Source: an uncultured Gemmatimonadota bacterium
GTDB lineage: Bacteria; JAAXHH01
Assembly: GCA_951812955.1 (NCBI GenBank)
Contig: OX638340.1
Span: forward strand, 2,432,001 to 2,496,000
Length of the DNA: 64,000 nucleotides
Direction: 5' to 3'
The position numbers and the translations under genes were made by a program. The notes beneath the pieces are model-generated. The model had not been told where the DNA came from. It saw only the letters and a program-made list of their open reading frames with translations, and made no database searches. This document shows, piece by piece, positions 1,993 through 21,884 of the stretch (positions are counted from its first letter, which is position 1; each line of letters begins with the position of its first letter).

Positions 1993-2003
1993 AGTGGTTC
2001 CTT

Positions 2004-4057: not shown

Positions 4058-4077
4058 ACGAACAACAGATCCTTCGT

Positions 4078-4557: not shown

Positions 4558-4597
4558 GATGCCTCCAGGTTTCTAGTCAATTACGGTGCCTGAACTT

Positions 4598-4620
4598 AAC
4601 TGATCGGTACACGATCAGTT
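4598..4620. promoter_or_regulatory. Inverted repeat AACTGATC-N7-GATCAGTT upstream of osmC
   Basis: Perfect 8-bp arms seen in the AT-rich intergenic region ~40 nt upstream of the osmC start. Could be an operator for an OhrR/MarR-type regulator. Confidence 0.3.
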
Positions 4621-4796
4621 TCAATCGTAGTAACTCACCTGGTGCCATGCAACAGGTTAAAACCTGTGGTGCATCCGGTAGCCTTAAGACCGGGTTGGAT
4701 GTAACGGACAGAAAATTGGAAGAAACTTCTTGTTTGGTCAGATAATTACTTTAATTTTCTGACAATAATTGATACTGAGCATATCGCATATCACGG

Positions 4797-5429
4797 GTGT
4801 TTTCAATGAGCAGTATGGCCGCTAAAATCATGCGTCGGGTGTCCGCTCATCCCACCGGAAAGTGGGTTTGTACACCGAAGGATTTCCTGGACTTCGGGAG
4901 CAGGGAGGCCATTGACCAGGCTCTGTCGCGCCTGGCCAGATCCGATCGGCTGCGGCGCATAGGCCACGGCCTCTATGACAGGCCCAGGTTCAGCAACGTA
5001 CTGAGACGTCCTGCGCCGGTTGATCTGGATGCTGCAGTTAGCGCACTGGCAAGGAGGGACGGCGTTCAGATCCTGCCGGATGGCATGGCCTCTGCGAATC
5101 AGTTGGGACTCACGAACGCCGTACCGGCCAAAGTCAGCTTCGTAACAGATGGCTACTCCAGGACACTTAAAATTGAAGGAAGGACGGTCCGTTTTCGACA
5201 TGCGAGCCCGAGCGTTATGAAATGGGCCGGAAGACCGTCAGCTTCGGTGGTTCAGGCGTTGCGATGGCTTGGTCCCGCCGCGGCCGAGGACGCACGGGTC
5301 CTGTCGACCTTGAGCCGAACCCTCTCGGAAGAAGTGAAGGTCGATTTATTAAGAAACATACGCGATCTGCCGGGATGGGTATTGCCGCTGTTGCGAGAAA
5401 TAACCACTGAACATCACGACGCAATATGA
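4797..5429 (+). CDS. abiEi: AbiEi-family antitoxin/transcriptional regulator (type IV TA)
   Basis: The N-terminal region (…AIDQALSRLARSDRLRRIGHGLYDRP…) resembles AbiEi wHTH antitoxins. It is followed 7 nt later by an AbiEii-like ORF. Confidence 0.55.
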   Translation: MFSMSSMAAKIMRRVSAHPTGKWVCTPKDFLDFGSREAIDQALSRLARSDRLRRIGHGLYDRPRFSNVLRRPAPVDLDAAVSALARRDGVQILPDGMASANQLGLTNAVPAKVSFVTDGYSRTLKIEGRTVRFRHASPSVMKWAGRPSASVVQALRWLGPAAAEDARVLSTLSRTLSEEVKVDLLRNIRDLPGWVLPLLREITTEHHDAI

Positions 5430-5436
5430 AAATGGA

Positions 5437-6174
5437 TTGCGTATCTTTCCTCTCCCTTCCTGTCCAGGACAGACGGGACCTCTTCGAGTCAGCGGCAAAC
5501 TGAAAACCGCACTTTCGAGACGAATCGACGAGATCGTCGAAGGAGGTCTTGTCATTCCAGATGAAAGCGACGTCGACGGCCAGACGCTTCTCGTGGAGTA
5601 CCCTACACTTTACCCTGGAGACAGTGTCGCCTACGTGGCGCCACGGGTACGAATCGAGGCAGGGGCGAGATCGGCGCTGGATCCCAACCTGACCCGTACC
5701 ATCAAACCATTCATCGCGGATGAGGTGCGAGACTTGTCTTTGGCAGTGGAAAACATCCGCGTTATCGCACCAGATCGCACGCTCTGGGAGAAGCTGTTGA
5801 TCCTGCATGGGTTGTACTGCGGATATCGGGACGCACAGCGTCTACCGGCAGACAGAGATCGGATATCCCGCCACTACTACGATGTTGCCATGATAACGGA
5901 GACCGAGTCCGGCAGGGCCGCTCTATCCAACCTTGAATTGATGGATTCAGTTCGTAAACACAACCTTATTGCGTTTCGACAGGCCTGGAAGAAGTTCGAA
6001 GAGGCCGTACCTGGACGGGTGAAACTGGTTCCTCAGTTGGAACTGCACATGCTGATCGAGCGGGACTATGAAGCCATGCAGGACATGATCCTGGGTGACG
6101 TCCCGAATTTCAGATGGATCGTGGACCAATTGATGCATGCCGAAGCCATTGTCAATGGAACTACGAGAAGTTAA
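5437..6174 (+). CDS. abiEii: AbiEii/AbiGii-family nucleotidyltransferase toxin (DUF1814), TTG start, possibly N-terminally degenerate
   Basis: …IRVIAPDRTLWEKLLILHG… and …RHYYDVAMI… are typical DUF1814 C-terminal motifs. The ORF begins with TTG. The canonical N-terminal GGTAL-type motif is not obvious (GKLKTAL instead). Confidence 0.55.
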   Translation: MRIFPLPSCPGQTGPLRVSGKLKTALSRRIDEIVEGGLVIPDESDVDGQTLLVEYPTLYPGDSVAYVAPRVRIEAGARSALDPNLTRTIKPFIADEVRDLSLAVENIRVIAPDRTLWEKLLILHGLYCGYRDAQRLPADRDRISRHYYDVAMITETESGRAALSNLELMDSVRKHNLIAFRQAWKKFEEAVPGRVKLVPQLELHMLIERDYEAMQDMILGDVPNFRWIVDQLMHAEAIVNGTTRS

Positions 6175-6298
6175 CGTTCATGAATGCCAGGACGGCAGCA
6201 CTATCTCTAATTACACGTCATGATACCTTGACGGTCGTGCTCGATTTCGACGTCAGACAACACGAAGATCAGTCGGACCAATATGAAGGAGCTCCAAC

Positions 6299-6916
6299 AT
6301 GGCAACCCGGCGAGAACTTGCCTTTCCCGTCGAATCTCAGGAAGCCGCTGAACTCGCAATCGAAGATGACCGCACCGGTATCATCCTCGATCCGCTTCGC
6401 TGGCGTCTCCTTGAGATCCTGGGAGCGGGAAAGTCGGTGACGGAGATTTCTGAAGCGCTTGATGTTACGGACGCCCGGGTGCTGTACCACGTGCAGAGAC
6501 TGGCACAGACGGGAGTCGTGCATCTGGAGGATGATGCGGCGGCAGATCCCCGGGAATGGCGGTGTCTGCCCGCGGCGGCAGTGATTAGCGTACAGGAGGA
6601 GCAGGAGGCGGGCAGGTCATCCGGGCAGGAGGACAGACAGGCACAAGTGGCCGTCCCGGAGGCAGTGGCCGGCCAGTTTAACCAGGCTTTTCGCGAAGCG
6701 GCGGAAGGGATGTACGGACCGTCCTTCCAGATGTCCGTCAACCACAACCGCGCGCGGCTGTCAGAAGCCCAGGCCGCCGAATTCAACCGTAGGCTGCTTG
6801 CGCTCATCGAAGAGTACTTCCCTCCCGGAAAAGGAGACCGGTCGGGCGTCAAGTACGGTTTCCACGGCGTGCTAACACCGATCGATCTTCATCCGCTTGG
6901 GGATGCCGAGGGATAG
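6299..6916 (+). CDS. ArsR-family HTH transcriptional regulator with C-terminal extension
   Basis: …ILDPLRWRLLEILGAGKSVTEISEALDVTDARVLYHVQRLAQTGVV… is an ArsR/SmtB-type HTH. At 205 aa it is longer than the minimal ArsR. Confidence 0.6.
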   Translation: MATRRELAFPVESQEAAELAIEDDRTGIILDPLRWRLLEILGAGKSVTEISEALDVTDARVLYHVQRLAQTGVVHLEDDAAADPREWRCLPAAAVISVQEEQEAGRSSGQEDRQAQVAVPEAVAGQFNQAFREAAEGMYGPSFQMSVNHNRARLSEAQAAEFNRRLLALIEEYFPPGKGDRSGVKYGFHGVLTPIDLHPLGDAEG

Positions 6917-6988
6917 GTGTTCGCGGATATCACGAACGTCATCCGCTCGGAGATGCCGGGGGATAGAGAGGTGGGTATACCATAAGCA

Positions 6989-7219
6989 TCACCGGGGTCC
7001 GCGACCATCACCGCGGCCTGAGACGACGGACCACAAGAAGACCGCCATACCTGCCAGCACAAGCACGGCCCCCAGGCAAAGGAACAAAGTCATCGAGACC
7101 GGATGGATCCAGAACAGGGTCGCCACTTCCACGACGAGGCCAACCGCAATCAACAAGCCCGCAATGTAAAGCCGGCCGGCGAATCCAGTTCGACCACCGG
7201 ACCGGAGGGATTCATGCAT
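6989..7219 (-). CDS. Small two-TM membrane protein (hypothetical), last gene of the cytochrome operon
   Basis: An ATG (MHESL…) lies 5 nt after the NrfH-like stop. It has two hydrophobic helices (LYIAGLLIAVGLVVEV…, LFLCLGAVLVLAGMAVFLW). Confidence 0.3.
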   Translation of the reverse strand: MHESLRSGGRTGFAGRLYIAGLLIAVGLVVEVATLFWIHPVSMTLFLCLGAVLVLAGMAVFLWSVVSGRGDGRGPR

Positions 7220-7224
7220 ATCGC

Positions 7225-7852
7225 TCACTCTCCCGCCGCCGGTTCCCATTTGCCAAAACGATCCAGCTTGTCCACCTCATGCACCAGGTTGTGGCACATC
7301 ACGCATGATCTGGTACCGTTGAGCATTTCTCGCAGATAGGGCCGGTGGTCCGGATGCTCCTCGTACGAGCGCGCGCCTGCGTGACATTCGAGGCAGGCCG
7401 TGTTTTCGTAGGGCTCGTACAGCGCGACGGGTTCGGACCACGTCCCCCAGACGTTGTGCCATACGTGCCGCACGCCCCGGATCTTGTCGTCCACGTCCCC
7501 GAACATCGTGTAGTCCGAATGGCAGACGTAGCAGGCATAGTCCGCGGGGATCCGCTTATTCTGGAAATGGGCGGCCGGCAGAAACCGGCCGTCGTCGATA
7601 TACAGGCTTTCCAGGAAGGGTTGGTTGACGTGGCAGGAGACGCAGAACTCGGTCGACTTGGCTTGCTCGTAGTGCTGCACGGTTCCCACCGAGCAGCGCC
7701 ACGCCGGGCAGCAGTAGAAACGTGAAGAACGCGAAGATCATGCCGCCGGCCGAGGCGGTAAGATCGGGCCGCCGCAGGACTACCGCGATCATGGCCAGCG
7801 TAATGGCCGCCAGGACGATCAGGGTGATGGTAAATCCGGTCATTCCGGCCAC
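7225..7852 (-). CDS. NapC/NirT/NrfH-family membrane tetraheme cytochrome c, split into two overlapping ORFs (probable frameshift near 7690-7705)
   Basis: ORF 7556..7852 encodes an N-terminal hydrophobic anchor (MTGFTITLIVLAAITLAMIAVVL…MIFAFFTFLLLPG). ORF 7225..7689 (GTG start, no signal peptide) has four CxxCH motifs (CVSCH, CYVCH, CLECH, CVMCH) in 150 aa. Family members are a single polypeptide of TM helix plus tetraheme domain. Confidence 0.6.
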
Positions 7853-8106
7853 TCAGTTCGACTCCTGTCCCCGGTCGCTATGGCTGCTTCGGTCGGCTCT
7901 ATTGTTCAGGCCGCCGACACTGCTCCGGCCACTTACTCCGCCGAACCGCGCCGGCCGGCTTCCTCACGAAGGTCCCGGGAGAGCGCCCTGATCTCGGCCA
8001 GGTCCTGCACCATCTCGCTCCAGCCGTACCACAGCGCATAGTCGGGATTGTTATGGAAGGTCCCCTGGAATGCCCGCATGCGATGTTCCAGGTGCATCCT
8101 GAAGAG

Positions 8107-9315
8107 TCACTGTTCGATCCTCGAAGGCGCGTCGTGAAACGCCAGCAGGTCGGGATAGTCGTATGCGTAATGTTCCGGCCGGACCAGTACCCCGTCCCGG
8201 TACAGCGCGGAGACGATGCGGATGGCCTCGGCCAGGAGGCGGTCGGTCTCGCGGATCATCTCATCGCCCTTTGCGAGTTCCGCCCGCACGAGGTTTTCCG
8301 AATGGCACTGCTCGCAGATGCCGGTCATGCGGTCGCGCTCCCGCTGCCAGTCCTCCTGGGTCAGCCGGGCCACGTCGGCCTGCCTGACCACATCCAGTCG
8401 CGGGGTGGGGTTGCCGTCCGGGTCCAGCACGCCAAGTGCCTGGAGGATCGTTGCCCGGTCCTCCGCCCACTGCGGGTCTTCCGGCATGGGAAGTCGGACG
8501 GCCAGGAAACCCCAGGCGGTCCGGACGCCGTGATCTCCCTCGGGCATGTGGCAGGTCTGGCACGTAGGCGCCTGGGCATGCTCGGGCAGCGTGCCGTTCT
8601 GCTTGAGCAGATGCCGCACGCCATGCTTGGAGGACGAGTACATTTCCCACTGGGGATGATCGAACCCCATGTGGCACGTCCTGCACGCCTGGGGCTCCCG
8701 GGCCTCCTTCACAGAAAAGAGATGGCGGGTATGACATACGTCGCAGGACGACAGGCCGAAAAGCCCGTCCTGCGCCTTGATCGTCTTAATCTCCTCTTCG
8801 CTCTTGAGGCCGATGCGGTGGCATCCGCCGCAGCCCTTCATACCCTCAGTCAGGGCCATGGGCAGGAAGTGGGTCGTCGGCATGGCGTTCATGCTGGTCC
8901 AGGCAAGGGCGTGCTTGCCCCCCGCGAACTGTTCCACCTGGATCGGATGGCACGTGGCGCACACGTCCGGGGTCGCGACGCCGGCCAGGGCCACGTCCTC
9001 CTCCGTGCGGTGATCGCCGCCGTGACACATGACGCAGTCCACGCCGTTCGTGCTGTGGGTGCTGAGTTCCCAGTCAATTACGATGCCGGGCGTGGCATCC
9101 TGGTGGCAGGCCACGCAGTCGGACGTGGCCCGCGGTGGATCGGCGGAGGGACCGCAGGCGGCAAGGGACAGCAGGAAGAATGATACGATGAAGAAGGATA
9201 CGATGTTGTTAACAAGGATGGCACGGCATACGCGGTACCTGGTTTTAGCAAGGAAGCGACTCCTGGAAAGCAGAGACGTCAGACTACCGGATTGCCGGGC
9301 CATCTTGTACCTCAT
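8107..9315 (-). CDS. Octaheme c-type cytochrome lipoprotein (HAO/ONR/OTR-like multiheme family)
   Basis: Lipoprotein-type signal (…FFLLSLAACG). Eight CxxCH motifs (CVACH, CVMCH, CATCH, CGGCH, CDVCH, CRTCH, CQTCH, CEQCH) within ~340 residues. It sits immediately upstream of the NrfH-like quinol-dehydrogenase-type gene. Confidence 0.8.
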   Translation of the reverse strand: MRYKMARQSGSLTSLLSRSRFLAKTRYRVCRAILVNNIVSFFIVSFFLLSLAACGPSADPPRATSDCVACHQDATPGIVIDWELSTHSTNGVDCVMCHGGDHRTEEDVALAGVATPDVCATCHPIQVEQFAGGKHALAWTSMNAMPTTHFLPMALTEGMKGCGGCHRIGLKSEEEIKTIKAQDGLFGLSSCDVCHTRHLFSVKEAREPQACRTCHMGFDHPQWEMYSSSKHGVRHLLKQNGTLPEHAQAPTCQTCHMPEGDHGVRTAWGFLAVRLPMPEDPQWAEDRATILQALGVLDPDGNPTPRLDVVRQADVARLTQEDWQRERDRMTGICEQCHSENLVRAELAKGDEMIRETDRLLAEAIRIVSALYRDGVLVRPEHYAYDYPDLLAFHDAPSRIEQ

Positions 9316-10791: not shown

Positions 10792-11733
10792 ATGCATGGC
10801 GCCGAGAACGATATTCCATTTGAAGGCGAGGGGACTCATACAGGCGGGCCGGACCGGGCTGTTGACGATACGATCCGGCTGAACTGGCGCGAGAAGCTGG
10901 TTGAAGTCGGCCTGATGATGGTAATGTTCACGTGCGGTATGCTGATCGGAATGTTCGTCATCATAGCTTCTCTGCTTACCATGCGAAGTACATTCGAGCA
11001 GTTGGCCCCGGGATTCATGGAAGTAGGTTCGATTCCGCTCATCATTCTGGTCGTCGTGGCCGTGATCGTCGGGAATATCTGTTCGTTCAGCTGCGCTCCC
11101 TACCTCATACGTCTCTTCTTTCGGGGCTACGAGTTGAAGGACGAGCGGATCGACCGCGCTTTGGATCACCTGATTTCCGTGACCGGGATGGAAATCAGGG
11201 CCGAACGGATCTACGCCATAAAGGGCAGGACGGCCAACGCCGTCGTGGCCGGCCTCTTCCGGAAGGGTCAGTACATCTTCTTTACCAACAGGCTTCTGGA
11301 GAGAATGAGAGAAGGAGAGATCATGGCGATCCTGGCGCACGAACTGGCCCATGTGCGGCACCGGCACATGCCGAGGATGATGCTGGGCATCGTGCTATGG
11401 ACCCTCGGCATCCAGGTATTCTTCTGGCTGATTGGCTTCCAGGTTTACTTCGAATCGATCGAAGAATCCTGGAAAATGTGGGTGTATGGCGGAATAAATG
11501 CCTTGAACTTCTACCTGCTTGTTTTCCTCGTTCTGTTCCCGCAGTCGAGGCGTCACGAATACGAGGCGGATGAGGCCGCCGCCCGGTGGGTGGGCATAAG
11601 CCAGTACAAGCAGGCCCTTTACCGGTTGCATCAATTGAATGACCAACTGAAACCACCGAGGAAGATCCTGTCGAAGCTAAGTACCCATCCGACGCTTCAG
11701 CAGAGGCTGGAGCGGGTGGGGAATCTGGAATAA
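10792..11733 (+). CDS. M48-family (Ste24/HtpX-type) zinc metalloprotease, copy A
   Basis: Two N-terminal TM helices, then HELAHVRHRH (HExxH), two more TM helices, and a downstream EYEADE third zinc ligand. ~55% identical over its length to the 16245..17192 protein. Confidence 0.8.
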   Translation: MHGAENDIPFEGEGTHTGGPDRAVDDTIRLNWREKLVEVGLMMVMFTCGMLIGMFVIIASLLTMRSTFEQLAPGFMEVGSIPLIILVVVAVIVGNICSFSCAPYLIRLFFRGYELKDERIDRALDHLISVTGMEIRAERIYAIKGRTANAVVAGLFRKGQYIFFTNRLLERMREGEIMAILAHELAHVRHRHMPRMMLGIVLWTLGIQVFFWLIGFQVYFESIEESWKMWVYGGINALNFYLLVFLVLFPQSRRHEYEADEAAARWVGISQYKQALYRLHQLNDQLKPPRKILSKLSTHPTLQQRLERVGNLE

Positions 11734-11799
11734 CGTGTGACTGGTGTTTCAGCGTGCTATCCGCGTTTGTAAGGAAGGTTACAGGACGTGTATACGGAC

Positions 11800-13023
11800 T
11801 CACTCCATGTTCATCGCATCCACCGGGCTCAGCTGCGAAGCCTTCAAGGCGGGATATATTCCGGCACATAGACCTATTGCCAGTGAGATCGCCAGCGACA
11901 AGAGGATATTGGAAACCGACGTACCAGTCGTGAAAGTGAGATCCAACACCTGATTCAATACGAACGAGAAAACCGATCCAAGGCCCAGTCCCAGCAATAT
12001 CCCCAGTAACCCCCCTAAAGCACTGATACCTATGGCTTCCAGCGTGAATTGATTCACGATATCGACGTGTCTGGCTCCTACTGACTTCCTAATACCTATT
12101 TCCCGCCTTCGTTCCGTTACGGAGACCAGCATCATATTCATGATCCCGATTCCACCCACCATCAGTGAGATGCCCGCCACGGCGGCAATCGCCGACTTAA
12201 CGGCGTTAATCACACCTCCTATCTGGTCCATTGCGTTTTTTCCGCTGACTATGTCAAATCCGGGCGCATCACCATGGATTGTCTTCAAGGCTGCCTCAAT
12301 GTCATCCACCGCAATTTCCATGACACTCGAATCCACTACCTTGATGGTCAAAAGGTCGAAGCCTTCATGGCCAAGCATCCTTTTCTGGACCGTCGTTATC
12401 GGAACGAAGACCCGGTTGCCCCAACTTTCATTGAAAACAATCTTTGGCTTCATGACGCCGATCACGGCAAATCTCTGACCATTCAGTTTCACTTCCTTGC
12501 CGACCGGATTGGTATCGTCAAACAATCTAGCGGCCAGTTCATCGCCCAGTACACATACTTTTCGCCAGCGCTTGACGTCGCGGTCGGTAATGAATCGACC
12601 CGTGGAAACCGACCACTGGTACATCTCCGGAAATGAAGGCGTCGTGCCGTACAACATCCCTCCATGCGACGTTTTTGCGAATCTGAGATCTACATTCAAT
12701 GTCGCGGCGGGGACCAATTGGCGCACGGCGCTCGATCTTCTCCCGATTTCCAGCATATCCTGCCAGACAAGATGCTCGTAATCGGATACAGGCATCCAAC
12801 TTCCTTCCCTATTTTCGTATCTCGATGGACTCACCCACACCATGGAGCCGCCACGTACGGATTCGAATTCATCCATCACCATGTCGTGAAGCCCCTCTCC
12901 AATCACGATGATGCCTGTTACAGCGCCAATGCCGACCGCAATCCCCAGCAGCGTCAGGACCGAACGCAGCCTGTAGTGAACGAGATTGGTAAACACCGTG
13001 TGGACATGGTGCGCTAAAGACAT
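11800..13023 (-). CDS. MacB/FtsX-type ABC transporter permease (YknZ-like), no fused or adjacent ATPase
   Basis: N-terminal TM1 ([18 protein letters not shown]), a large periplasmic domain, and three C-terminal TM helices with the FtsX motif region (…[14 protein letters not shown]…). No Walker motifs. Confidence 0.8.
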
Positions 13024-13045
13024 AGACGACAGGGTCCGTAGAGGA

Positions 13046-14260
13046 CTATTGGTGTTTCGATTTCAGCGCGATATGAACCGCTCTTGCATCCGCTGCGATG
13101 TGTGCTCCAGGTTCGATACCGGACAGAATCTCCACATATTCAGTCGATTCAATTCCGATCTCGACCATGGTGGATTCCAGGTATTCTTCCGGACATTTCG
13201 ACATACCAGGGTCCATCGAAGTACAACGATAAACCACGTACGGCTTGCCGGGCACCGACCCAGTAGATGCTGTTTCCTTCTGTTCAGTGGCTATACCTAC
13301 GTAATCACCCATTTCCATGACCGAAGATGCAGGCGCAAGCAGCGAGCCTTCATTCTTCTCCAACACGATGTCGATATCGCAGGACATTCCCTGCTGCAAA
13401 TCCAGCGATGGATTCGATATCACGATTTCGGCATCGAACGTTACAAGCGCACTCCCGGGTTTCCGCACACCGATAGGCGCCAACCGCTCAACATGCCCGC
13501 TGTACAATGTGTCCGGGTAGGCATCGACACGAATCCGTACTTCCTGTCCAGGCCTGACCCTGCCTGCGTCAATTTCCCCAATGGCCGATTTGACGATCAT
13601 TCTGTCCGGATCGCCAATATGAAACATCTCCGTACCGCCGGTATACGAGGAGGTGCCCGATGCTACGACCTCGCCCGTTTCCACCATGCGGGCAACGACG
13701 ATGCCGTTCAAGGGAGACAGGATCCTCACGGCATCATGCGTTCTGTTGGAATCCACCTCAACATTAACCTTCAGTTCAAGTATTTTGAGTTCGAGTTCCG
13801 CCATGTTGAGATTATGATTGGCCTTGGTTTTTTCAATCCTTGCCTTGTCGAATTCCGCAGACGATATCAGGGATCTCTCATGTAATTCACGCTTTCTTTT
13901 AAAGGAGATCTCTTGTTCTGACAGATCTATTCGAGCGCCTTCAACTCTGGCGCGCTGCCGGGACAACTGAAGGGACTGAGACGGATCCGGCTCTATCACG
14001 GCAAGGACATCCCCCTTTGATACCGTATCCCCTACATCGGCGTGAATATGCCTGATTTCCCCGGATATGGTGGGTTTGACCATGACGGTCCTGACAAACT
14101 GGATCGTACCTGTCTCCACCAGGATATCGGAGATCGTTCCATGTTGAACCTGGAGTATTGGGAACGAGGCAACCCGGACCGTGGAACTGTAAACAAAGTA
14201 CAGTAGAACGGCTACGAGAATGCATGCCGATACGCAGACAATGACTATGCGTTTTTTCAT
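13046..14260 (-). CDS. HlyD/MacA-type periplasmic adaptor (membrane fusion protein, YknX-like)
   Basis: N-terminal anchor [22 protein letters not shown], a coiled-coil segment ([19 protein letters not shown]…[12 protein letters not shown]), and barrel/lipoyl motifs (…VKPTISGEI…[13 protein letters not shown]). Confidence 0.8.
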
Positions 14261-14281
14261 GTCAGCGGTGATTTCCAGGAA

Positions 14282-15013
14282 TTACACGTAAACGGTACCA
14301 AGGTTCTCCATGGTCCTGCGAATGACAATCCACATGCACCACACTAGTCCCAACGCGAACCATGTGAGTATAACCGATCCCTGGAAAGTCCGTGCAAGAC
14401 CCAACCCCAGCAGGTAAAGAAACCAAATACCGAAAAAGTCGACACCTGTAAGGAACAGGCCCGGGAGGGTTTCGAGGTCTGCATCGTCGAGCAACACACC
14501 AGGATGGATAGCCGGATCTAGCGACCCCCAAAGCAGAACCAGCGTGGTTTTGACGACTGTTTCGGGTACGAGGACAAGCAAGGCGTAGCCGGTAATCGGC
14601 AGAACCTTGTTGTACGGCAGGAGCTTACCGAAGATCAATTCTCCGCTGTGTTTCCCTACAACCGACCACGCGACAAGCATAAGGCAGACGCTGGCCGGCA
14701 TGATTAAAAGACCGGCGAGTTGCCTATGGTCGAATTTCGAAGCCTCGCGCAGGATAATAGATTGCTGAAACATACTGAGATTCGAATAGGACTGGAGTTC
14801 CATTTCGATCAACGCCCGTTCCGTATCCAGCGCAACCGGCAAAGTTACTATCCCGGCGATCAGTACGACCGACACGATAACGATCAGAATCAGGATCGAC
14901 TCAGAGGCGGACTGTTCAGTTTCAAGATCCGCAAATGCCCTCCCGGGACTGTAATAGACTCGTAGCCATCGCCTGGCATATCTTCCCATATCTATTGACG
15001 CGCTCAAGGACAT
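14282..15013 (-). CDS. Yip1-domain family membrane protein (YknW-like)
   Basis: The N-terminal …RVYYSPGRAFADLE… followed by 5 hydrophobic helices is the bacterial Yip1-domain pattern. It sits directly upstream of the HlyD and FtsX genes, as in B. subtilis yknWXYZ. Confidence 0.55.
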   Translation of the reverse strand: MSLSASIDMGRYARRWLRVYYSPGRAFADLETEQSASESILILIVIVSVVLIAGIVTLPVALDTERALIEMELQSYSNLSMFQQSIILREASKFDHRQLAGLLIMPASVCLMLVAWSVVGKHSGELIFGKLLPYNKVLPITGYALLVLVPETVVKTTLVLLWGSLDPAIHPGVLLDDADLETLPGLFLTGVDFFGIWFLYLLGLGLARTFQGSVILTWFALGLVWCMWIVIRRTMENLGTVYV

Positions 15014-16224
15014 AGATCTCCCATGATGACCAGATGGTAGTAGCTGTGTCCGCCACCGGACCAGAATGGACTATTCCAGGGCCAGAACCTCCACCAGATT
15101 GGTTTGGAACGGGTATATGCACCTTGGCGAAAACTCTCCAGGAAGGTACTGATGTGATGTACCGTGCTCGTGGAAAGATGCCTGCCGACTCTCTTGGGAT
15201 GGGATTCCACGCCGAGGTAAGAACGAATCATAAGGCTGTGTTCATCGATTGGAAGCGCATCGACATTCTCGACGTACCAATTGAACACGTAGTAGAAGTG
15301 GTTTATGAGGAAGTACTCAACGTTAGAAACATAGAAAACGGAAATGCTCGAGTCGTGGGCTTCAGCGTAAGAACCGATGGCCCTCAACGTCTTCTCGCCC
15401 GCGAAGTTTCCCACGACGGGAATGATCAGGTTCCTGTGATGCAGGCGCTTCACGAACCTGAATGTATCTTCGGTAAACAAGAAACTGGCGAATTCTCCCT
15501 CCACAGTCGTACCTGTCATCAGGTCTTTGAACGAAGGATAGGATAACCCGTTGCCCAGTCGTGTTTCAGCGTATGTAATCGAAAGCTGTTTTTCGTAAAA
15601 CGATCGGTATATGTAGCGCATCCTGTCGAGATCGTACCGATCTTTGATCCCATACATGCCTACTTCCCGACTGAGCCGCCTCCAATTCTGTTTAAAAAAC
15701 AGTGAGTCGGCCGTGGTCGACGATTCGATGTATTCCAGGACTTCCGTAACGGAAGCGGTTTTATCCGGTAATCCGTTCAAAGCCAATCCGACTTCCCGGT
15801 TATGTCTACTGAACAGCAGCATCAGGAAGGATGTCCGGTCCCGGGCCAGGGTAAAAAGGGCTTTGTAGAGGAGATGCTGAAGCAGGTTTTCACGTCGGAT
15901 GTCGACGACAAATGCGATTTCCGGTCTCGTAGCAGCGATGTAGGAGAAGTTCTGTTCCGTACCGACGCCGATATAGACGCCGCCGCGTTTTCCCAGTTCG
16001 ATTACGGTCGGGACAACGTGCAGGTAGGACGATTCATTGGAAACGAAGTTGTCGCCGGGAAAGTGACCGGGATCTTCGGAGAACGCAGTCATGATCCTGG
16101 CGAATTCGGACAGCGCAAGGGAGTCCGGCAACGCCCCGTAAGATGGGAAGCGCAGGTCAGTCAGCGCGCCGATGGTCAGTAGCAGTATGACAACTCGAAT
16201 CAACTTCATCGGTTTTACATCCAT
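15004..16224 (-). CDS. Secreted protein of unknown function
   Basis: Signal peptide MKLIRVVILLLTIGALT. 406 aa, no motifs I can assign. Translationally coupled (overlap) to the Yip1 gene. Confidence 0.5.
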   Translation of the reverse strand: MDVKPMKLIRVVILLLTIGALTDLRFPSYGALPDSLALSEFARIMTAFSEDPGHFPGDNFVSNESSYLHVVPTVIELGKRGGVYIGVGTEQNFSYIAATRPEIAFVVDIRRENLLQHLLYKALFTLARDRTSFLMLLFSRHNREVGLALNGLPDKTASVTEVLEYIESSTTADSLFFKQNWRRLSREVGMYGIKDRYDLDRMRYIYRSFYEKQLSITYAETRLGNGLSYPSFKDLMTGTTVEGEFASFLFTEDTFRFVKRLHHRNLIIPVVGNFAGEKTLRAIGSYAEAHDSSISVFYVSNVEYFLINHFYYVFNWYVENVDALPIDEHSLMIRSYLGVESHPKRVGRHLSTSTVHHISTFLESFRQGAYTRSKPIWWRFWPWNSPFWSGGGHSYYHLVIMGDLCP

Positions 16225-16244
16225 TCCATCTGCATTTGGTTCGT

Positions 16245-17192
16245 CTATTGCGCGTCCAACCTTGACACGCGGTCGAGACGGTTCTGCATCGTGGGGTGGG
16301 TCAGAAGTACTCTAACAAATCTCGGTGGTGGCTTTAAATTGTCATTGACTTGATGAAGACGGTAGAGCGCCCGTTTGTATTGCTCCGTGCCCACCCATTT
16401 TGCCGCCGTAGCATCTGCTTCGTATTCGTTACGCCTCGATAGCGGGTAAATGACCAGAAACATGAGAAGCCACACGTTCACGGCATTTAAAAGCCCGTAC
16501 GTCCACATTTTAAAAGACTCATCCATTGCATCGACATATGCACTGAAATCTAGCAGATACAGGAAAGCCTGCATCCCGCAGACCCACATAAATGTAGCCA
16601 ACTGCATCTTGGGAAGATGCCTGTGACGAACATGGGCCAATTCGTGGGCGAATATTGCCAAAATCTCCTCTTCGTTCGCTTTCGCCAGAAGTTTGTCCGT
16701 AAAGAAGATGTACCTGTTTTTGCGGAAAAGCCCAGTTACCATCGCGTTGGCAGTCCTGCTCTTGATGGTGTACAGGGTTTCTGCCGCAATGTTCATATCG
16801 ACGGACGATATCAGCTTCCCGACTGACCGATCCAGGCGATCGTCCCGTAACTCGTATCCACGGAAGATGAGACGTATCAGATATGGAGAACACAACCATG
16901 CACAGGCGTTCCCTACGGTTGCCGACAGGATGACCAGCAACACAATCGTTAAGGAACCTTGGTCCAATAGACCCGGAACTCCCTGAACAATCATGTCATC
17001 CGCGGTTAACAGAATGCTTAAGAACACGAATACCGCGATCAATATGCCCACCAGGGTCACACTCATGTTCAACCCGATTTCGACCAGTCTGTCGCGCCAG
17101 GTCAACCGGATTGGTTCATCTTTAATCGATGAAGCGCCGCCGGCTACTTCATTTATACGGTGTGTAGGTTCGACCATTATTTCCTTCTTCAA
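16245..17192 (-). CDS. M48-family (Ste24/HtpX-type) zinc metalloprotease, copy B
   Basis: HELAHVRHRH and NEYEAD motifs. Same topology as copy A and clearly paralogous to it (RLTWRDRLVEIGL…PYLIRLIFRGYELRDDRLDR…). Confidence 0.8.
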   Translation of the reverse strand: MKKEIMVEPTHRINEVAGGASSIKDEPIRLTWRDRLVEIGLNMSVTLVGILIAVFVFLSILLTADDMIVQGVPGLLDQGSLTIVLLVILSATVGNACAWLCSPYLIRLIFRGYELRDDRLDRSVGKLISSVDMNIAAETLYTIKSRTANAMVTGLFRKNRYIFFTDKLLAKANEEEILAIFAHELAHVRHRHLPKMQLATFMWVCGMQAFLYLLDFSAYVDAMDESFKMWTYGLLNAVNVWLLMFLVIYPLSRRNEYEADATAAKWVGTEQYKRALYRLHQVNDNLKPPPRFVRVLLTHPTMQNRLDRVSRLDAQ

Positions 17193-17199
17193 ATCAGCG

Positions 17200-17850
17200 T
17201 TATGACATAACGGCTTGTACCAGGCCGTTTAGCGCGACGTATGCCAGGATCACGCCGACTGCTTTGAACCTGGGCATCAAGCAGACCCTGTGCACCGCTT
17301 CGATGGCAAAAGCGACCACCAGGGTCAAAGCAATATACCGACCGTATCGAATCCACTTAAGCAACCCGATATCCTGCATCTTCGTGATCTCGCCGGGCAA
17401 TTGATCGATCGTGGCCAGGTTCGACAGTCCGACATAGACCATCTGGTCTGAAAACGCAAGCATGAGAACGACCGCCATGATCGAATACACTGTAACCGGG
17501 GTGTATGCGACACCCAGCCATCCAAACAGCGCGCGATGACGACGTCTACTGTTCAATAGCGCAACAACGATCATTACAAACAGCCAACCGAACACGAAAA
17601 TCACGATTTCGCCCAATGTGACGCCCAATATCATGGTTATGAACATAACTGAGAATAACTGTGCATATGTTTCGGTAAGATGATCCGGTATTTGTCCTGC
17701 AACTGACCTGAAAGTCAGAAAAAGTACGATCCCGTTCATAAGCAAGTATATGACAAACATGCCGATGCCCGTCGAGAGCGGTTCGGTTACACTGATTGAT
17801 ACCAGCCTGTCGGATGCCCTGCGTGGAATTTCCATTTTCTGTCCGTTCAA
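17200..17850 (-). CDS. Polytopic membrane protein (possibly Yip1-like), hypothetical
   Basis: 216 aa with 5-6 hydrophobic helices. It follows the SpoIIM-like gene with a 4-nt overlap. Confidence 0.45.
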   Translation of the reverse strand: MNGQKMEIPRRASDRLVSISVTEPLSTGIGMFVIYLLMNGIVLFLTFRSVAGQIPDHLTETYAQLFSVMFITMILGVTLGEIVIFVFGWLFVMIVVALLNSRRRHRALFGWLGVAYTPVTVYSIMAVVLMLAFSDQMVYVGLSNLATIDQLPGEITKMQDIGLLKWIRYGRYIALTLVVAFAIEAVHRVCLMPRFKAVGVILAYVALNGLVQAVMS

Positions 17851-18518
17851 TTGATTTTGTTCGCTATTTGTCCAGTGACAAAGGTTTCTATAATCGAAGC
17901 CACCGTGATCAGAAGGAATCCGGTGACGAGTCTGCGTACGTTCAAGGCCAACCTATCCGAATCTATGAGCCATGTATCGAACTTGAGTTTTTGGCAAAAG
18001 AGGACCAGACCTTCGCATCCCACAGCGCCGAAAAACACAAACCCCGCCAACTCAATCACGCCATGGGGTAGAATCAAAGCGGCTATGTGGTATATCGAAG
18101 CACCGGAATCAACCGCAGAAAGCGTAGACCATGCCACGATAGTTCCTGTCCAGCCCAATATCACAACACTGACCAATCCAAAGGACAGAAGGCCCAATAG
18201 TATTTTCATGGAAACGAGGAAATTGTTGCCAATAATGAAACGCCATTCATCCCCACCGTCCAAAAAGGGACGTGAATCCAGCATGAGGGTGGAGCTACCC
18301 GGATCTGTTGGTTTATTCTCAATCATATCCAGGGGCATTGCCGCTCCAACACCCAAGCCGACGATGACAGAAGCAAAGGAAATTAAAATGGGTAGTTTGC
18401 TTGGTTTGCGCGTTGACATAGATCCCACACTAGGTATCATCCATAAATTCCGAGGAAAGGATGGAGGCCATTTTCGGCCTCCATCCATCGTACTTACCAG
18501 CTTGTTAAATTCCAGCAC
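17847..18518 (-). CDS. SpoIIM/DUF95-family integral membrane protein
   Basis: 223 aa with multiple TM helices. Its overall pattern resembles the stage II sporulation protein M / DUF95 family. Its start overlaps the 3' end of the peptide gene by 14 nt. Confidence 0.45.
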   Translation of the reverse strand: MLEFNKLVSTMDGGRKWPPSFPRNLWMIPSVGSMSTRKPSKLPILISFASVIVGLGVGAAMPLDMIENKPTDPGSSTLMLDSRPFLDGGDEWRFIIGNNFLVSMKILLGLLSFGLVSVVILGWTGTIVAWSTLSAVDSGASIYHIAALILPHGVIELAGFVFFGAVGCEGLVLFCQKLKFDTWLIDSDRLALNVRRLVTGFLLITVASIIETFVTGQIANKIN

Positions 18519-18789
18519 CTATAAACACGGCGCCAACACCGGTTCCAATGCCAACGCTGGCCACGAGACCATAGCCGGCTGCTGTCAGCCAACCAATTGT
18601 TCCACCACCAGCCAATCCACCCAGTGCAACACCGCCAACCAGGGACGCATTGGAACCCCACAAGCAGTAAGCGAGGTTCGGCGACGCTGCGATGCCCGGT
18701 GTTTCAGCCAGCGGCGAACTGGCCGTTGAGTTGACGCTCGCGCCTGCGATCAGGGCGAACATGAACACTGAGAGAATGAGTTTTTTCAT
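18505..18789 (-). CDS. 94-aa secreted Gly/Ala-rich hydrophobic peptide precursor (bacteriocin-like / glycine-zipper-like)
   Basis: The ATG at 18789..18787 has a GAGGGG SD 9 nt upstream. Sequence: MKKLILSVFMFALIAGASVNS|TASSPLAETPGIAASPNLAYCLWGSNASLVGGVALGGLAGGGTIGWLTAAGYGLVASVGIGTGVGAVFIGAGI. It has a Sec-type signal, then a ~73-aa uncharged segment with repeated GxxxG motifs. Confidence 0.55.
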   Translation of the reverse strand: MKKLILSVFMFALIAGASVNSTASSPLAETPGIAASPNLAYCLWGSNASLVGGVALGGLAGGGTIGWLTAAGYGLVASVGIGTGVGAVFIGAGI

Positions 18790-19114: not shown

Positions 19115-19143
19115 AAAAAAGCCCGGCGATCGTACCGCCGGGC
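19115..19143 (-). terminator. Rho-independent terminator after the large secreted-protein gene
   Basis: The minus-strand RNA folds as GCCCGGCG-GUACGAU-CGCCGGGC followed by UUUUUU. It lies between the 19275 gene end and the peptide-operon promoter region. Confidence 0.6.
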
Positions 19144-19274: not shown

Positions 19275-21884
19275 CTACTCCCCGTCCCCATCCCCCACCG
19301 CATCCAGCAGCGCTTCCCGCGTCATGCCATCGGGAGGCGTGTTTAGGCCCGATTCCTCGCCCGGGTCGGCGACGAGCCAGATGCCGCGCTCGAGGGCGTA
19401 GCCATCTCGTTCGGAGGCCTTTTGGAGGAGTTCCTGCAGGTCTTCGCCATCCATCAGGCCCAGCAGCCCGACGGGGATCACCCGGGCGGAGATTCCCCTT
19501 TCGCGCAGGAAGCCCGCGTACCAGTCGGGAGGACGTTCATAGGAGAACACGAGAAAGGGGCGTTCCGGCGTGCCGGCGCCCCGCCAGAATCCCAGGCGAT
19601 ACCAGTCCGGCCGCAGGGAGCGGACGAAGGCGCCGTGGCGCAGCCGGGGATTGATTTCGTCCATGGACTGCCGGTACAGCGTGCCGAGGCGCTCCGCGTT
19701 GGCTTCCTGGAGCTGGATATAGGTCTCGAGGTATCCCGACTTGAGCAGCCACTCGAACCGGTCTTCCCGGTCCAGTCCCATGAGCGACCTGAATTCGTCG
19801 CCGTGGTACAGACCGTTCCGGACGAGATGCCGGATGAAGTACCGGAAATGCAGGTCGTCGAAGACGTCGGTCGCGGCATAGGCGTGCCGCGGACGCGTGA
19901 TATGGGGATCCCAGTCGTGCACGATGGCCTGCGGGGCCCCCTGGAGGCGGCTGTGCCGGGCGATGGCGCGGGCCGGCTCAAAGAGGTGGCGGTTCAGGTA
20001 TGCCATGTCGAGCCGGGAAGGCAGGTCGACGTCCTCCCCGCGGGCGTTCAGGGCGGCTGCGTAGTCGCCGGTGATCTCGCGCTCGCGAGGGGCGCTGACG
20101 CCGGCGTACCAGGCCGTCGGTGTGCCGCCCACGCGGCTGAGGATGGGCATGGCCCACGATTCGAAACGCACGTCGCCCGTCACCGCCGCGCCCCCGGTGT
20201 AACTGGCAGCCGGCGCCACGGTCCAAAGGAAGTCCATCCCGAGGCCGGGCAACGTTCCGGCGAGTTCGGACACGTGTTCATGCCGGCGGGCGATGAAATC
20301 CCAGACGCCTCGAAGCGGTACGGCATCCGTCGTGCCGGTAGAGAGGCCGGCGTCTGCCGAGTCGCCGGGACTGGGGCGGGCTTCGGCGTCCACGCTGGCG
20401 TCTGAGCCGGAACCCGGACCAGCGCCCAGCTCTGCACTTGAACCTGTGCCGGCTCCGGAACCCGTGCCGTCGCCTGTGCCCGCGCCGTCGCCTGTGCCCG
20501 CGCCGGGTCCGTCATCCGGACCGGACGCCGCGCTGCTGAGCACCCGGACCCGTTCGGGCGCCGCCGTCCTTATGGATACGTTGTTGAGGGAGAAATCCGG
20601 TTTCCGGTTGCCGGGCATCTGGGCCGTGGCATAGTCGTGTTCGGGAGACCAGTCTCCGGGGGAATCGACCAGCGCGCGGACGTAGCTCGCGAGTCCGTCC
20701 ATAAAATCATCCAGTCCTTCGAGATCGGCTTCCCGGGGGCGGATGCCCAGGGGCGGCAAGGGCCGGTCGAGCCCGGATAGCACCTGGCGGTCAACGGCAA
20801 GGACGAATCCCTCGTTCAGCCGGCCGGTCCGTCCCGCGGCCGCTACCGCCATGCGGCCGAAGGTCTCCTCGTCGCCTCGCATGGTTTCCAGGTCTTCGGC
20901 CGACCCGATCTCTTCCCGGATCTCCCGGTCGGCGAAAGCGGCGGCGATGATCTCCACCGGAACGCCCACCAGCGCGTATTCGGATCCCCAGCGGTTTCCG
21001 GACATGCGCACGGTCAGCGTGTCCTTCGCATCTGAAACGCCTTCCACCCTGCCCTTGAATCTCGCCGCGGTCCAGTCCACCGGCACGAGCCGATCCCGGT
21101 TCCGGTACTGCAGGCTGGTCCGCAGCTCCTGGTCGCCGCGCAGCAGCAGTTCGACGTCTTCTCCCGCAATCGCGTCCGCGGGGGAGATACGCAAGGTACG
21201 CCGGACTACGCGGTATTCGGGTTCGGGTTCGGGTGCGGGTTCCGGTTCGATCTCCTCTCCAGGGTCCGGCGCTTGAGGTTCCACGAGCAGCGGCTCGGCA
21301 CCGTCGCCCACGAGCAGCCGGGTGCCGGCGCGGGCGGCCACGCTGCCGTCCATGCCCCGCCCGACCGGGTGGCCGTCGGCAATTTCGAAATAGACCACGG
21401 GGTTCAGGACTGGACTGGTTTCGTGGTCGGCGTTCAGCGCGTGCAGGTTGATGTTCAGACGGGCCAAGATCTCGTTGAACTGATACCGGTCGTGGACGCC
21501 GGGATTGACCTTCCTCCGCTCGCTGTAGGGCCCGTCGGAGGGCATCGCCAGCACGAGCACTTTACCCCGCGACACGAAGTTGATGACCAGGTCCACTTCC
21601 TGGATGCTCATGCCCGGATCGCCGCCGCCCAGAAGCACGATGGCGTCGTAGTCCCGGGCGTCCCGTTCGACCATGGCCGGATAATACGGCCGGTAGTCGA
21701 CGTCGAACCCCGCTTCCGAGAACGCCTGTATCATCCCGGTGTGCTCTTCCGGATAGGCCATGGCGTATTCGACGACGAGCAGGCGGGGATCGCCGTTCGG
21801 CCCGGCGGACGGCTCCTGCCTCGCGCTTGCGGAGTAATTGGGCGCCAGGAATACAATCAGGCAGACAATCAGTTTGATTCGCAT
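19275..21884 (-). CDS. Large secreted protein of unknown function with Gly/Thr/Asp-rich repeat linker
   Basis: Signal peptide MRIKLIVCLIVFLAPNYSASA. 869 aa. The internal low-complexity repeat is GAGTGDGAGTGDGTGSGAGTGS. High GC. Confidence 0.6.
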   Translation of the reverse strand: MRIKLIVCLIVFLAPNYSASARQEPSAGPNGDPRLLVVEYAMAYPEEHTGMIQAFSEAGFDVDYRPYYPAMVERDARDYDAIVLLGGGDPGMSIQEVDLVINFVSRGKVLVLAMPSDGPYSERRKVNPGVHDRYQFNEILARLNINLHALNADHETSPVLNPVVYFEIADGHPVGRGMDGSVAARAGTRLLVGDGAEPLLVEPQAPDPGEEIEPEPAPEPEPEYRVVRRTLRISPADAIAGEDVELLLRGDQELRTSLQYRNRDRLVPVDWTAARFKGRVEGVSDAKDTLTVRMSGNRWGSEYALVGVPVEIIAAAFADREIREEIGSAEDLETMRGDEETFGRMAVAAAGRTGRLNEGFVLAVDRQVLSGLDRPLPPLGIRPREADLEGLDDFMDGLASYVRALVDSPGDWSPEHDYATAQMPGNRKPDFSLNNVSIRTAAPERVRVLSSAASGPDDGPGAGTGDGAGTGDGTGSGAGTGSSAELGAGPGSGSDASVDAEARPSPGDSADAGLSTGTTDAVPLRGVWDFIARRHEHVSELAGTLPGLGMDFLWTVAPAASYTGGAAVTGDVRFESWAMPILSRVGGTPTAWYAGVSAPREREITGDYAAALNARGEDVDLPSRLDMAYLNRHLFEPARAIARHSRLQGAPQAIVHDWDPHITRPRHAYAATDVFDDLHFRYFIRHLVRNGLYHGDEFRSLMGLDREDRFEWLLKSGYLETYIQLQEANAERLGTLYRQSMDEINPRLRHGAFVRSLRPDWYRLGFWRGAGTPERPFLVFSYERPPDWYAGFLRERGISARVIPVGLLGLMDGEDLQELLQKASERDGYALERGIWLVADPGEESGLNTPPDGMTREALLDAVGDGDGE

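Follow-up and report, generated by a model that had tools for sequence, protein, structure and literature searches.

Genes and operon structure of the locus

A trio of genes encoding a Yip1-domain protein, a HlyD-type adaptor and a MacB-type permease forms the 3′ end of a tightly packed eight-gene operon on the minus strand of DNA from a diderm Gemmatimonadota bacterium. The whole analyzed stretch of 64 kb is referred to as the window. In 5′ to 3′ direction, the operon encodes a small Gly-rich secreted peptide, a SpoIIM/DUF95 protein, a Yip1-like protein, an M48 protease, a DUF7790 protein, and finally the Yip1, HlyD and permease proteins. The following features were annotated:

19121..19143, minus strand: terminator-like GC-rich hairpin with T-run, 3′ of an 869-aa gene (pattern scan, sequence reading)
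18505..18789, minus strand: 94-aa secreted hydrophobic protein, gene 1 of the operon (ATG after GAGGGG; signal peptide)
17847..18518, minus strand: SpoIIM/DUF95-family membrane protein (Pfam SpoIIM 7.6e-14); maximal ORF, likely start at ATG 18488
17200..17850, minus strand: multi-pass membrane protein, weakly Yip1-like (Pfam Yip1 E 3.3e-4, 21 bits, below cut-off)
16245..17192, minus strand: M48a, HtpX-like membrane zinc protease inside the operon (Pfam Peptidase_M48 1.8e-28; HELAH motif)
15004..16224, minus strand: DUF7790/LIC_10091-like exported protein, 406 aa (Pfam DUF7790 2.7e-36)
14282..15013, minus strand: Yip1-domain membrane protein at the YknW position (Pfam Yip1)
13046..14260, minus strand: HlyD/MacA/YknX-type periplasmic adaptor, membrane-anchored, 404 aa (Pfam HlyD_D23, HlyD_3; NCBIfam RND_mfp)
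11800..13023, minus strand: MacB-type (type VII ABC) permease without nucleotide-binding domain (NBD), 407 aa, final gene of the operon (Pfam MacB_PCD and FtsX)
10792..11733, plus strand: M48b, second M48 protease, convergent with the permease (Pfam Peptidase_M48 3.5e-27)

The hairpin is the upstream boundary of the operon. With the exception of this single strong hairpin, the counts of terminator-like and promoter-like patterns were at chance level, and an Rfam scan of 9–23 kb detected zero non-coding elements. The Yip1 gene (14282–15013) and the DUF7790 gene overlap by 10 nt. In the preliminary description, the trio had been placed between an M48 protease and a secreted unknown. The convergent M48 gene downstream is indeed present, while the upstream neighbor is the DUF7790 protein, and the trio is the end of an eight-gene operon, not free-standing. 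The wider setting, i.e., a SpoIIM/DUF95 gene together with a gene for a small secreted hydrophobic peptide as in bacteriocin clusters, had not been noticed before. GC3 values ranged from 0.50 to 0.63 in the operon versus 0.76 to 0.88 in the flanking genes. This composition appears foreign, and a horizontally acquired, lineage-specific operon is part of the explanation to which we give roughly even chances as a whole.

The permease matched the Pfam models MacB_PCD (1.3e-40, 140 bits) and FtsX (1.6e-18, 67 bits), both above the cut-offs, and aligned end to end with residues 280–662 of the MacB structure 5LIL, which are its transmembrane (TM) and periplasmic part (E 1.5e-50). TM1 lies at the N-terminus, followed by a large MacB core domain in the periplasm and, at the C-terminus, by the three helices of the FtsX domain. 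About 19 residues precede TM1 and a fused NBD is absent. The extracellular domain of YknZ (structure 5F9Q) matched the permease at E 9.7e-10. By profile search, proposed earlier as a check for a non-ABC family, it is a bona fide MacB/type VII ABC permease. ADOP proteins (TIGR03434) are a described precedent for a MacB_PCD/FtsX permease without an adjacent ABC ATPase, but they are internally duplicated, about 800 aa long and occur in paralog arrays, whereas the window permease is a single 407-aa unit that scored 124 bits versus the TIGR03434 cut-off of 622 and is not an ADOP member.

The adaptor (13046–14260) scored 117 bits with RND_mfp (cut-off 94.9) and was also above the cut-offs of HlyD_D23 and HlyD_3; for its orthologue in the relative L001 (92% identical), PF25990 Beta-barrel_YknX is on record. 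The Yip1 protein (14282–15013) exceeded the Pfam Yip1 cut-off (30.4 versus 28.6 bits), and its match to the NCBIfam model YknW_fam was full-length but weak (23 bits versus a cut-off of 110). The two Yip1-like genes of the operon show no BLAST-detectable similarity to each other, which rules out recent paralogs. The proposed homology of the module to YknW-YknX-YknZ-type systems is supported. M48a matched the NCBIfam models for HtpX below their cut-offs and is 53% identical to M48b.

Conserved loss of the NBD gene

The operon had been described as lacking an NBD gene, and this was confirmed with several approaches. There were no ABC_tran matches among the 10 proteins scanned at the operon with Pfam, and the Walker-motif check suggested earlier, carried out as a six-frame scan, yielded neither Walker A nor LSGGQ motifs between 6 and 37 kb. 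The sole match of a tblastn search with a MacB NBD across the 64-kb window was at 37985–38599 (minus strand). It is CcmA, adjoins CcmB and CcmC, and is the only ABC ATPase in 64 kb. As an ABC-2-type NBD grouped with CcmB and CcmC, it is ruled out as the missing motor. Since the stop codons of the permease and the convergent M48b are only 66 bp apart, a remnant of an NBD gene 3′ of the permease is excluded. The operon also ends well within the window, so that no NBD gene of the same operon lies just beyond it.

The same eight-gene operon without NBD was found in L001 (96% permease identity) and in L089–L092 and L002/L003 (70%), and the Yip1-HlyD-permease genes without NBD also in L004/L005 (47% permease identity). 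In these relatives of the window clade an NBD is absent within 10 kb, and none of the approximately ten clade loci has an NBD in cis. At least 15 sister loci with 38–44% identity have the order Yip1-HlyD-permease(×1–2)-NBD with the NBD in terminal position. The complete module including the NBD is present in a MAG labelled Gemmatimonadetes (P0151, the NBD of L097). In a neighbor-joining tree, the NBD-less clade was monophyletic, and L108/L113 formed a second NBD-less lineage nested among NBD-linked ones. Because relatives down to 47% identity have no NBD and the sisters carry it as the last gene, the 3′ NBD gene is, judged from these comparisons, lost in the window lineage, with at least one further loss elsewhere, and this is a real evolutionary loss.

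As a control set, we used generic MacB-type permeases with at most 37% identity among the matches listed from a contig scan with the permease alignment; these matches were due to VGGIGIMN and MLVSVTER, two universal motifs. A MacB-type NBD was encoded within 3 kb at 52 of the 68 loci with adequate flanks. At the remaining 16 loci (24%), the flanks were free of NBD genes for at least 3 kb and in most cases for 10 kb, and many of the 16 still adjoin a HlyD gene. Permease genes without an ATPase gene are fairly common in the MacB family; since such loci are common, the pump most likely relies on a motor encoded at another place in the genome. The commonness of permease loci without an adjacent NBD is a point that the preliminary description did not contain.

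Selection on the permease and the possible source of an ATPase

The permease showed the lowest dN/dS of the operon (0.09–0.15) and thus the strongest purifying selection, while the maximum of 0.55 was obtained for the 94-aa peptide gene; this comparison leaves out the SpoIIM values versus L001 and L092. The permease gene is free of frameshifts and stop codons, and intact genes persist across lineages with a synonymous divergence >1. A pseudogene or an assembly artefact is ruled out by the conservation and dN/dS. It is hardly credible, too, that the trio is left over from a four-component pump and has been decaying without function since the loss of the NBD: although an essential component is absent in cis, the genes are full-length across these lineages and the selection data contradict decay.

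The part of the permease that is relevant for ATPase binding is the following segment:

12046..12138, minus strand: permease residues 296–326 (31 residues), end of TM2 with major coupling helix and loop (alignment)

The coupling helix docks the NBD in MacB (PMC5985334). In an alignment including fused MacB proteins, the columns of this segment were invariant or near-invariant, and an 18-residue coupling-helix stretch between TM2 and TM3 aligned with the motif that is invariant in both fused and stand-alone relatives. Identity in the coupling region was 0.74 within the NBD-less clade versus 0.58 for the whole protein, and 0.71 to NBD-linked relatives versus 0.45 for the whole protein. The segment is among the best-conserved parts of the permease and barely differs from its counterpart in fused MacB, which makes docking of any MacB-type NBD plausible, although a purely structural role in the TM2-TM3 turn could also account for the conservation. 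For the N-terminal cytoplasmic segment, the identity to NBD-linked relatives was 0.29 versus the protein average of 0.45. Recruitment of an NBD in trans, one of the possibilities raised in the preliminary description, is thus favored but unproven: the conserved coupling helix and the strong purifying selection argue for it, while a profile search with sister-clade NBDs recognized no partner NBD for the permease among the 120 matches listed.

Alternatively, the module could be independent of an ATPase. The permease dimer, the HlyD ring and Yip1 would then serve as a static scaffold of the envelope or as a shield that binds peptide, or as an adaptor that passes membrane-embedded peptide on to the HtpX-like M48 proteases, and an NBD would never bind. 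The approximately ten clade loci without NBD in cis and the diverged N-terminal cytoplasmic helix of the window clade are consistent with such a module, and a host-hopping island without its own motor would gain from motor independence. Furthermore, M48 genes are found with the NBD-less clade but not with the 15+ NBD-linked relatives. M48b occupies exactly the position of the NBD gene in the sister modules, and its orthologue is convergent to the NBD-less module in L001, L089–L091 and L004/L005 (57% identity in L004/L005). However, the association of M48 genes with NBD loss goes back to one ancestral event, and L108/L113 have neither an M48 nor a Yip1 gene. In the HtpX family the active site faces the cytoplasm, i.e., the membrane side opposite to the periplasmic domain of MacB, and for the two M48 proteins, too, family knowledge and the positive-inside reading predict an HtpX-like cytoplasmic active site. 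With the coupling helix almost unchanged, the permease being the most constrained gene of the operon, and an ATPase required by all characterized members of the MacB/FtsX/LolCE fold (PMC5985334), we regard an ATPase-free module as unlikely. The earlier suggestion of an FtsX-like mechanotransmitter acting on the M48 proteases draws on the same co-occurrence of M48 genes with the NBD-less clade. It is weakly supported: the co-occurrence goes back to one event, the predicted active site lies on the other side of the membrane, and such a mechanotransmitter would still require an ATPase.

The secreted peptide and comparison with known systems

The 94-aa protein has a Sec-type signal peptide, not a bacteriocin leader, followed by a Gly/Ala-rich hydrophobic C-terminal part. 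It is kept in L001 and L002 with the invariant motifs PNxAYCL, AAGYGL and TGVGA, and had no match in Pfam or NCBIfam and no detectable similarity to bacteriocin families. The SpoIIM protein scored 52 bits with Pfam SpoIIM, above the cut-off, and a fragment (P0244) is 100% identical to it. A word-based search found SpoIIM homologues only in Gemmatimonadota-labelled sequences of close relatives and gave no tie to known bacteriocin DUF95 proteins. For the DUF7790 protein, the sole relative with a solved structure is 6ULO, an 'uncharacterized protein'. SpoIIM/DUF95 proteins are a hallmark of circular-bacteriocin clusters (PMC6131525, PMC7132975), and sets of Yip1, HlyD and ABC proteins are found repeatedly in bacteriocin clusters as well as in resistance to SDP (PMC6131525, PMC7132975, PMC10707071, PMC5985334). 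In L004/L005, genes for a LanB-type dehydratase, a nitroreductase-domain protein and an M50 protein precede the NBD-less module. Among the ORFs of at least 60 aa, no small cationic immunity protein was apparent. With none apparent at this size and no ATPase encoded, the operon does not appear to be a canonical circular-bacteriocin cluster.

In the explanation that we prefer, and which we hold to be about as probable as all others together, the trio would be a pump for export or self-protection, powered by a trans-encoded NBD, and would belong to a lineage-specific peptide operon acquired by horizontal transfer. The operon would make a small Sec-exported Gly/Ala-rich hydrophobic peptide, for which the 94-aa protein is the candidate pump substrate. 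The SpoIIM/DUF95 protein, the HtpX-like M48 proteases, the DUF7790 protein and the Yip1-like protein may process, handle or clear this peptide, while the complex of Yip1, HlyD and MacB-type permease would shield the inner membrane of the producer and expel the peptide from the periplasm. The pump would derive from a Yip1-adaptor-permease(s)-NBD module that lost its own 3′ NBD gene. Its permease would still be a type VII ABC mechanotransmitter, with a MacB-type NBD from elsewhere in the genome docking on the coupling helix. YknWXYZ and As-48EFGH have been suggested to protect in the same way, the former against SDP and the latter against enterocin AS-48 (PMC5985334).

It is also possible, if rather improbable, that a trans-encoded NBD is used but no toxic or antimicrobial peptide is made. 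The 94-aa protein would then be a structural glycine-zipper envelope protein, and the operon an envelope maintenance or stress system in which HtpX-like quality control is combined with a MacB-type pump that extrudes lipids, glycolipids or misfolded proteins of the envelope. Lipids and lipoproteins are handled by MacB-type pumps such as DevBCA and LolCDE, HtpX-like proteases act in quality control, and SpoIIM-family proteins are widespread outside bacteriocin clusters. This would also agree with the NBD-linked sister modules, which stand alone without a peptide gene, and with a 94-aa protein that matches no bacteriocin family. However, a hydrophobic peptide gene directly before SpoIIM and a Yip1-HlyD-MacB set mirrors bacteriocin clusters, the NBD-less sister module of L004/L005 lies in a RiPP-like cluster, and the operon is of foreign composition with a fast-evolving 94-aa gene.

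Compared with known systems, the proposed peptide pump resembles Bacillus YknWXYZ, an SDP-resistance pump tied to a Sec-exported hydrophobic peptide and thought to act at the outer face of the membrane (PMC5985334, PMC4887032). In both, a Yip1-family protein, a HlyD/YknX-type adaptor and a stand-alone MacB-type permease are encoded in matching order, and both are linked to a Sec-exported hydrophobic peptide, here by gene neighborhood. In contrast to YknWXYZ, the window operon has no gene for a YknY ATPase, and YknY precedes the permease whereas the NBD follows it in the sisters of the window module. Further differences are the low YknW_fam score of the window Yip1 protein given above, the diderm host, and the location of the module inside an eight-gene operon with SpoIIM, M48 and DUF7790 genes. 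As-48EFGH, an accessory production and immunity transporter in AS-48, likewise combines a multi-pass membrane protein, an adaptor and a MacB-type permease (PMC5985334, PMC6131525), but the ATPases As-48D and As-48G both have no counterpart in the window operon. A SpoIIM/DUF95 gene adjoining a small hydrophobic peptide gene is shared with circular-bacteriocin clusters (PMC5985334, PMC6131525); however, the described examples are all Gram-positive, and the window peptide is very rich in Gly and carries a signal of the Sec type. MacAB-TolC of E. coli and A. actinomycetemcomitans shares permease fold and topology, the coupling-helix motif and a HlyD-type adaptor, but MacB carries an N-terminally fused NBD and has no Yip1 partner, and the window ORFs scanned included no TolC-like outer-membrane gene.

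A further, quite improbable scenario combines several of these aspects. In it, an ATPase-free permease-adaptor-Yip1 complex of the MacB/FtsX fold would work with HtpX-like M48 proteases and SpoIIM/DUF95 in this diderm Gemmatimonadota bacterium, and together they would mature a bacteriocin-like and possibly circular peptide in a Sec-dependent manner and provide immunity to it. If true, the MacB/FtsX fold would here be used without a motor for the first time, and the operon would be the first circular-bacteriocin-type cluster outside Gram-positives. An ATPase-free permease as such would overturn the view of this fold as an always ATP-driven mechanotransmitter. If the NBD is borrowed, the operon would be a clean natural case of ATPase sharing by MacB-type permeases, which about a quarter of the sampled loci seem to need and which is hardly studied for this family. 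Either way, a small secreted Gly-rich peptide encoded with SpoIIM, M48 and DUF7790 proteins points to an undescribed peptide system of Gemmatimonadota that might yield new membrane-active peptides, and the operon suggests for Yip1/YknW-type and SpoIIM-type proteins a role that can be tested.

Operon layout and the absence of an ATPase

Eight closely packed minus-strand genes, overlapping or spaced by at most 22 nt, are located at 11.8-18.8 kb. Downstream of this operon and convergent with its permease gene lies a second M48 gene (M48b), with 66 bp separating the two stop codons.

Genes of the operon and the adjoining M48 gene
18505-18789, minus: 94-aa protein, Sec-type signal peptide and Gly/Ala-rich hydrophobic remainder (GAGGGG 5′ of ATG; no family match)
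17847-18518, minus: SpoIIM/DUF95 membrane protein (Pfam 7.6e-14)
17200-17850, minus: membrane protein, weakly Yip1-like (Pfam 21 bits, under cut-off)
16245-17192, minus: HtpX-like M48 protease, M48a (Pfam 1.8e-28)
15004-16224, minus: DUF7790 exported protein (Pfam 2.7e-36)
14282-15013, minus: Yip1 protein (Pfam 30.4 bits; cut-off 28.6)
13046-14260, minus: HlyD/MacA/YknX-type adaptor (HlyD_D23, HlyD_3, RND_mfp)
11800-13023, minus: MacB_PCD and FtsX permease, 407 aa (Pfam 1.3e-40 and 1.6e-18)
10792-11733, plus: M48b, 53% identical to M48a

A strong terminator-like hairpin (19143-19121) lies 3′ of an upstream 869-aa gene, and therefore the operon begins at the small peptide gene. The upstream gene (19275-21884, minus) has a host-like GC3 of 0.81 and is kept directly 5′ of the operon in the related loci L001, L002, L089, and L090. 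Its product has a signal-like N-terminus and a low-complexity GAGTGDG-type stretch, and no match in Pfam or NCBIfam.

The order Yip1-HlyD-permease without a nucleotide-binding domain (NBD), as stated in the preliminary description, was confirmed by the domain matches and by three scans. None of 10 proteins scanned matched ABC_tran, a six-frame scan covering the operon revealed no Walker A or LSGGQ motif from 6 to 37 kb, and a tblastn query with the NBD taken from a fused MacB relative matched only 37985-38599. This candidate for the missing motor was rejected, as it is CcmA, adjoining CcmB and CcmC and belonging to cytochrome c maturation; it is the sole ABC ATPase in the 64-kb window. The permease likewise has no fused NBD: about 19 cytoplasmic residues precede TM1, and the protein aligns end to end with residues 280-662 of the MacB structure 5LIL, i.e., the transmembrane and periplasmic part (E 1.5e-50). 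Therefore, both an NBD gene immediately outside the window in the same operon and a non-ABC permease are excluded, and the missing ATPase in the module is real.

Elsewhere in the window, genes for NapC/NirT-type and multihaem (hepta-haem-like) cytochromes c and the CcmABC maturation set are found at 7225-9315 and 36377-38758 (both minus). A lower-GC region at 2004-6174 resembles a small mobile or defence islet; it encodes a LexA-like S24 repressor, a DUF4143 AAA ATPase, and a DUF6088/AbiEii (type IV toxin-antitoxin) pair. A three-gene run (41267-44172, plus) encodes a MoxR-like AAA ATPase, a VWA/CoxE protein, and a DUF4159 protein, while genes for an M20 peptidase, a class-III aminotransferase, an amino-acid kinase, hisS, a semialdehyde dehydrogenase, and a LysX/RimK ATP-grasp protein (44237-51241, minus) resemble a LysW-type lysine or arginine biosynthesis cluster. 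The window adjoins the chromosomal replication origin, with rnpA (plus) followed by dnaA, dnaN, recF, gyrB, and gyrA (all minus) at 51941-62423.

Conservation of the NBD-less state

The nearest relatives carry the Gemmatimonadetes label. The same eight-gene operon without NBD is present in L001 (2.47 Mb contig; permease identity 96%), L089-L092 (91-95%), and L002/L003 (70%). In the more distant loci L004/L005 (47%), Yip1-HlyD-permease is retained, again lacking an NBD within 10 kb, and a convergent M48 gene is 57% identical to M48b. There the upstream genes differ, and this NBD-less sister module lies in a RiPP-like cluster, whose genes directly 5′ of the module (200-7800) encode a 755-aa protein ending in a nitroreductase domain, an M50 protease, an 843-aa protein with a LanB-type dehydratase N-domain, and two unknowns; no precursor peptide was recognised in this cluster.

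More than 15 sister loci (38-44% identity), drawn from two look-up sets and from a metagenome scan that used the adaptor as seed, have the order Yip1-HlyD-permease (one or two copies)-NBD, the NBD gene being last and immediately 3′ of the permease gene. In a neighbour-joining tree, the window clade joins the L004 clade in a single NBD-less group. Another lineage without NBD (L108/L113), consisting of HlyD and permease only, without Yip1 and M48, branches within the NBD-linked ones; accordingly, the subfamily has lost the 3′ NBD gene at least twice. Judged by this distribution, the NBD-less state is conserved and derived. The NBD of the complete module L097 is identical to protein P0151, labelled Gemmatimonadetes at NCBI; therefore, the phylum holds both forms. 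In the NBD-linked sister module L087, the NBD gene (11371-12027) is called as pieces of 178 aa and 31 aa with IS elements adjoining, which may reflect either ongoing loss of the ATPase from the module or a misassembly.

Permease constraint and M48 proteases

The dN/dS values of the permease against three orthologues (0.09, 0.13, and 0.15) are the lowest in the operon and indicate a working permease; that the module is a dead remnant of a pump is very improbable. The permease also looks still built for NBD docking. In MacB, the end of TM2 and the next cytoplasmic helix form the major coupling helix, which relays NBD movements (PMC5985334). The corresponding 22-residue segment is invariant or nearly so in NBD-less, NBD-linked, and fused relatives, with a regional identity of 0.74 within the NBD-less clade and 0.71 to NBD-linked proteins, compared with 0.58 and 0.45 for the whole permease; at 0.29, the short cytoplasmic segment at the N-terminus is more diverged than average. 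Since nearly all members of the family share the coupling motif, docking of a MacB-type NBD encoded at another locus is plausible.

The NBD-less clade has M48 genes alongside the module; NBD-linked relatives lack them. In the tree, this association corresponds to a single ancestral event, and the other NBD-less lineage has no M48. Both proteins are HtpX-like. The active site of HtpX is cytoplasmic, and the charges flanking the first two M48 helices fit this location. Therefore, periplasmic activation in the FtsX-EnvC style is unlikely, and the earlier proposal of an FtsX-like mechanotransmitter to the M48 proteases is weakly supported; such mechanotransmission would need an ATPase regardless. 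An ATPase-independent scaffold or protease adaptor, for which the M48 association might speak, is unlikely. The M48 proteins may plausibly clear or process the hydrophobic peptide within the membrane.

A putative peptide-related role

A SpoIIM/DUF95 gene is found in all circular-bacteriocin clusters (PMC6131525, PMC7132975), and sets of Yip1 or another multi-pass membrane protein, HlyD adaptor, and MacB-type ABC transporter serve as accessory export/immunity systems, e.g., YknWXYZ against the Sec-exported SDP peptide, As-48EFGH, and the bawcin cluster (PMC5985334, PMC10707071). Immediately 5′ of the SpoIIM gene, the operon carries the small hydrophobic peptide gene, whose dN/dS among close relatives is the highest of the operon (0.55); despite this fast evolution, the motifs PNxAYCL, AAGYGL, and TGVGA and a single cysteine are retained. 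GC3 is 0.50-0.63 across the eight genes (11800-18789) versus 0.76-0.88 in neighbours, including the membrane proteins CcmB and CcmC. This contrast also occurs in L002 and L004 (there with the RiPP-like island) and lasts in orthologous loci diverged beyond a dS of 1, while in L088, a complete sister module with its NBD, GC3 is like that of the host, which suggests an acquired accessory island. Together, the SpoIIM gene, the Yip1-HlyD-MacB set, the fast-evolving peptide gene, the GC3 contrast, and the RiPP-like sister locus favour a role in peptide export or self-protection; a pump powered in trans with a non-peptide envelope role is rather unlikely. Unlike canonical circular-bacteriocin clusters, the operon has no ATPase and no recognisable immunity protein, and its peptide has a Sec-type signal and no family match.

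The explanation we prefer, with evenly balanced confidence, is an accessory pump of the YknWXYZ/As-48EFGH type that has lost its own NBD gene, would be powered by an NBD encoded at another locus, and would serve a peptide operon specific to the lineage and gained horizontally. Thus, the observation in the preliminary description stands, and its interpretation is borne out only in part.

As a control, 80 loci of generic permeases were taken among the matches listed in a genome scan, a sample biased toward similarity with the query permease. In 52 of the 68 loci with enough flank, a MacB-type NBD was present within 3 kb; the other 16 (24%) were free of such an NBD for at least 3 kb, most of them for 10 kb. 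These 16 include loci of Poribacteria, Acidobacteriota, Verrucomicrobiae, cyanobacteria, and one Gemmatimonas MAG, and several retain an adjacent HlyD gene. This shows that a MacB-type permease without adjacent NBD is a common state, with the ADOP 'duplicated orphan permease' family as a described precedent. The operon as a whole is undescribed, and its missing motor is less surprising than at first sight.
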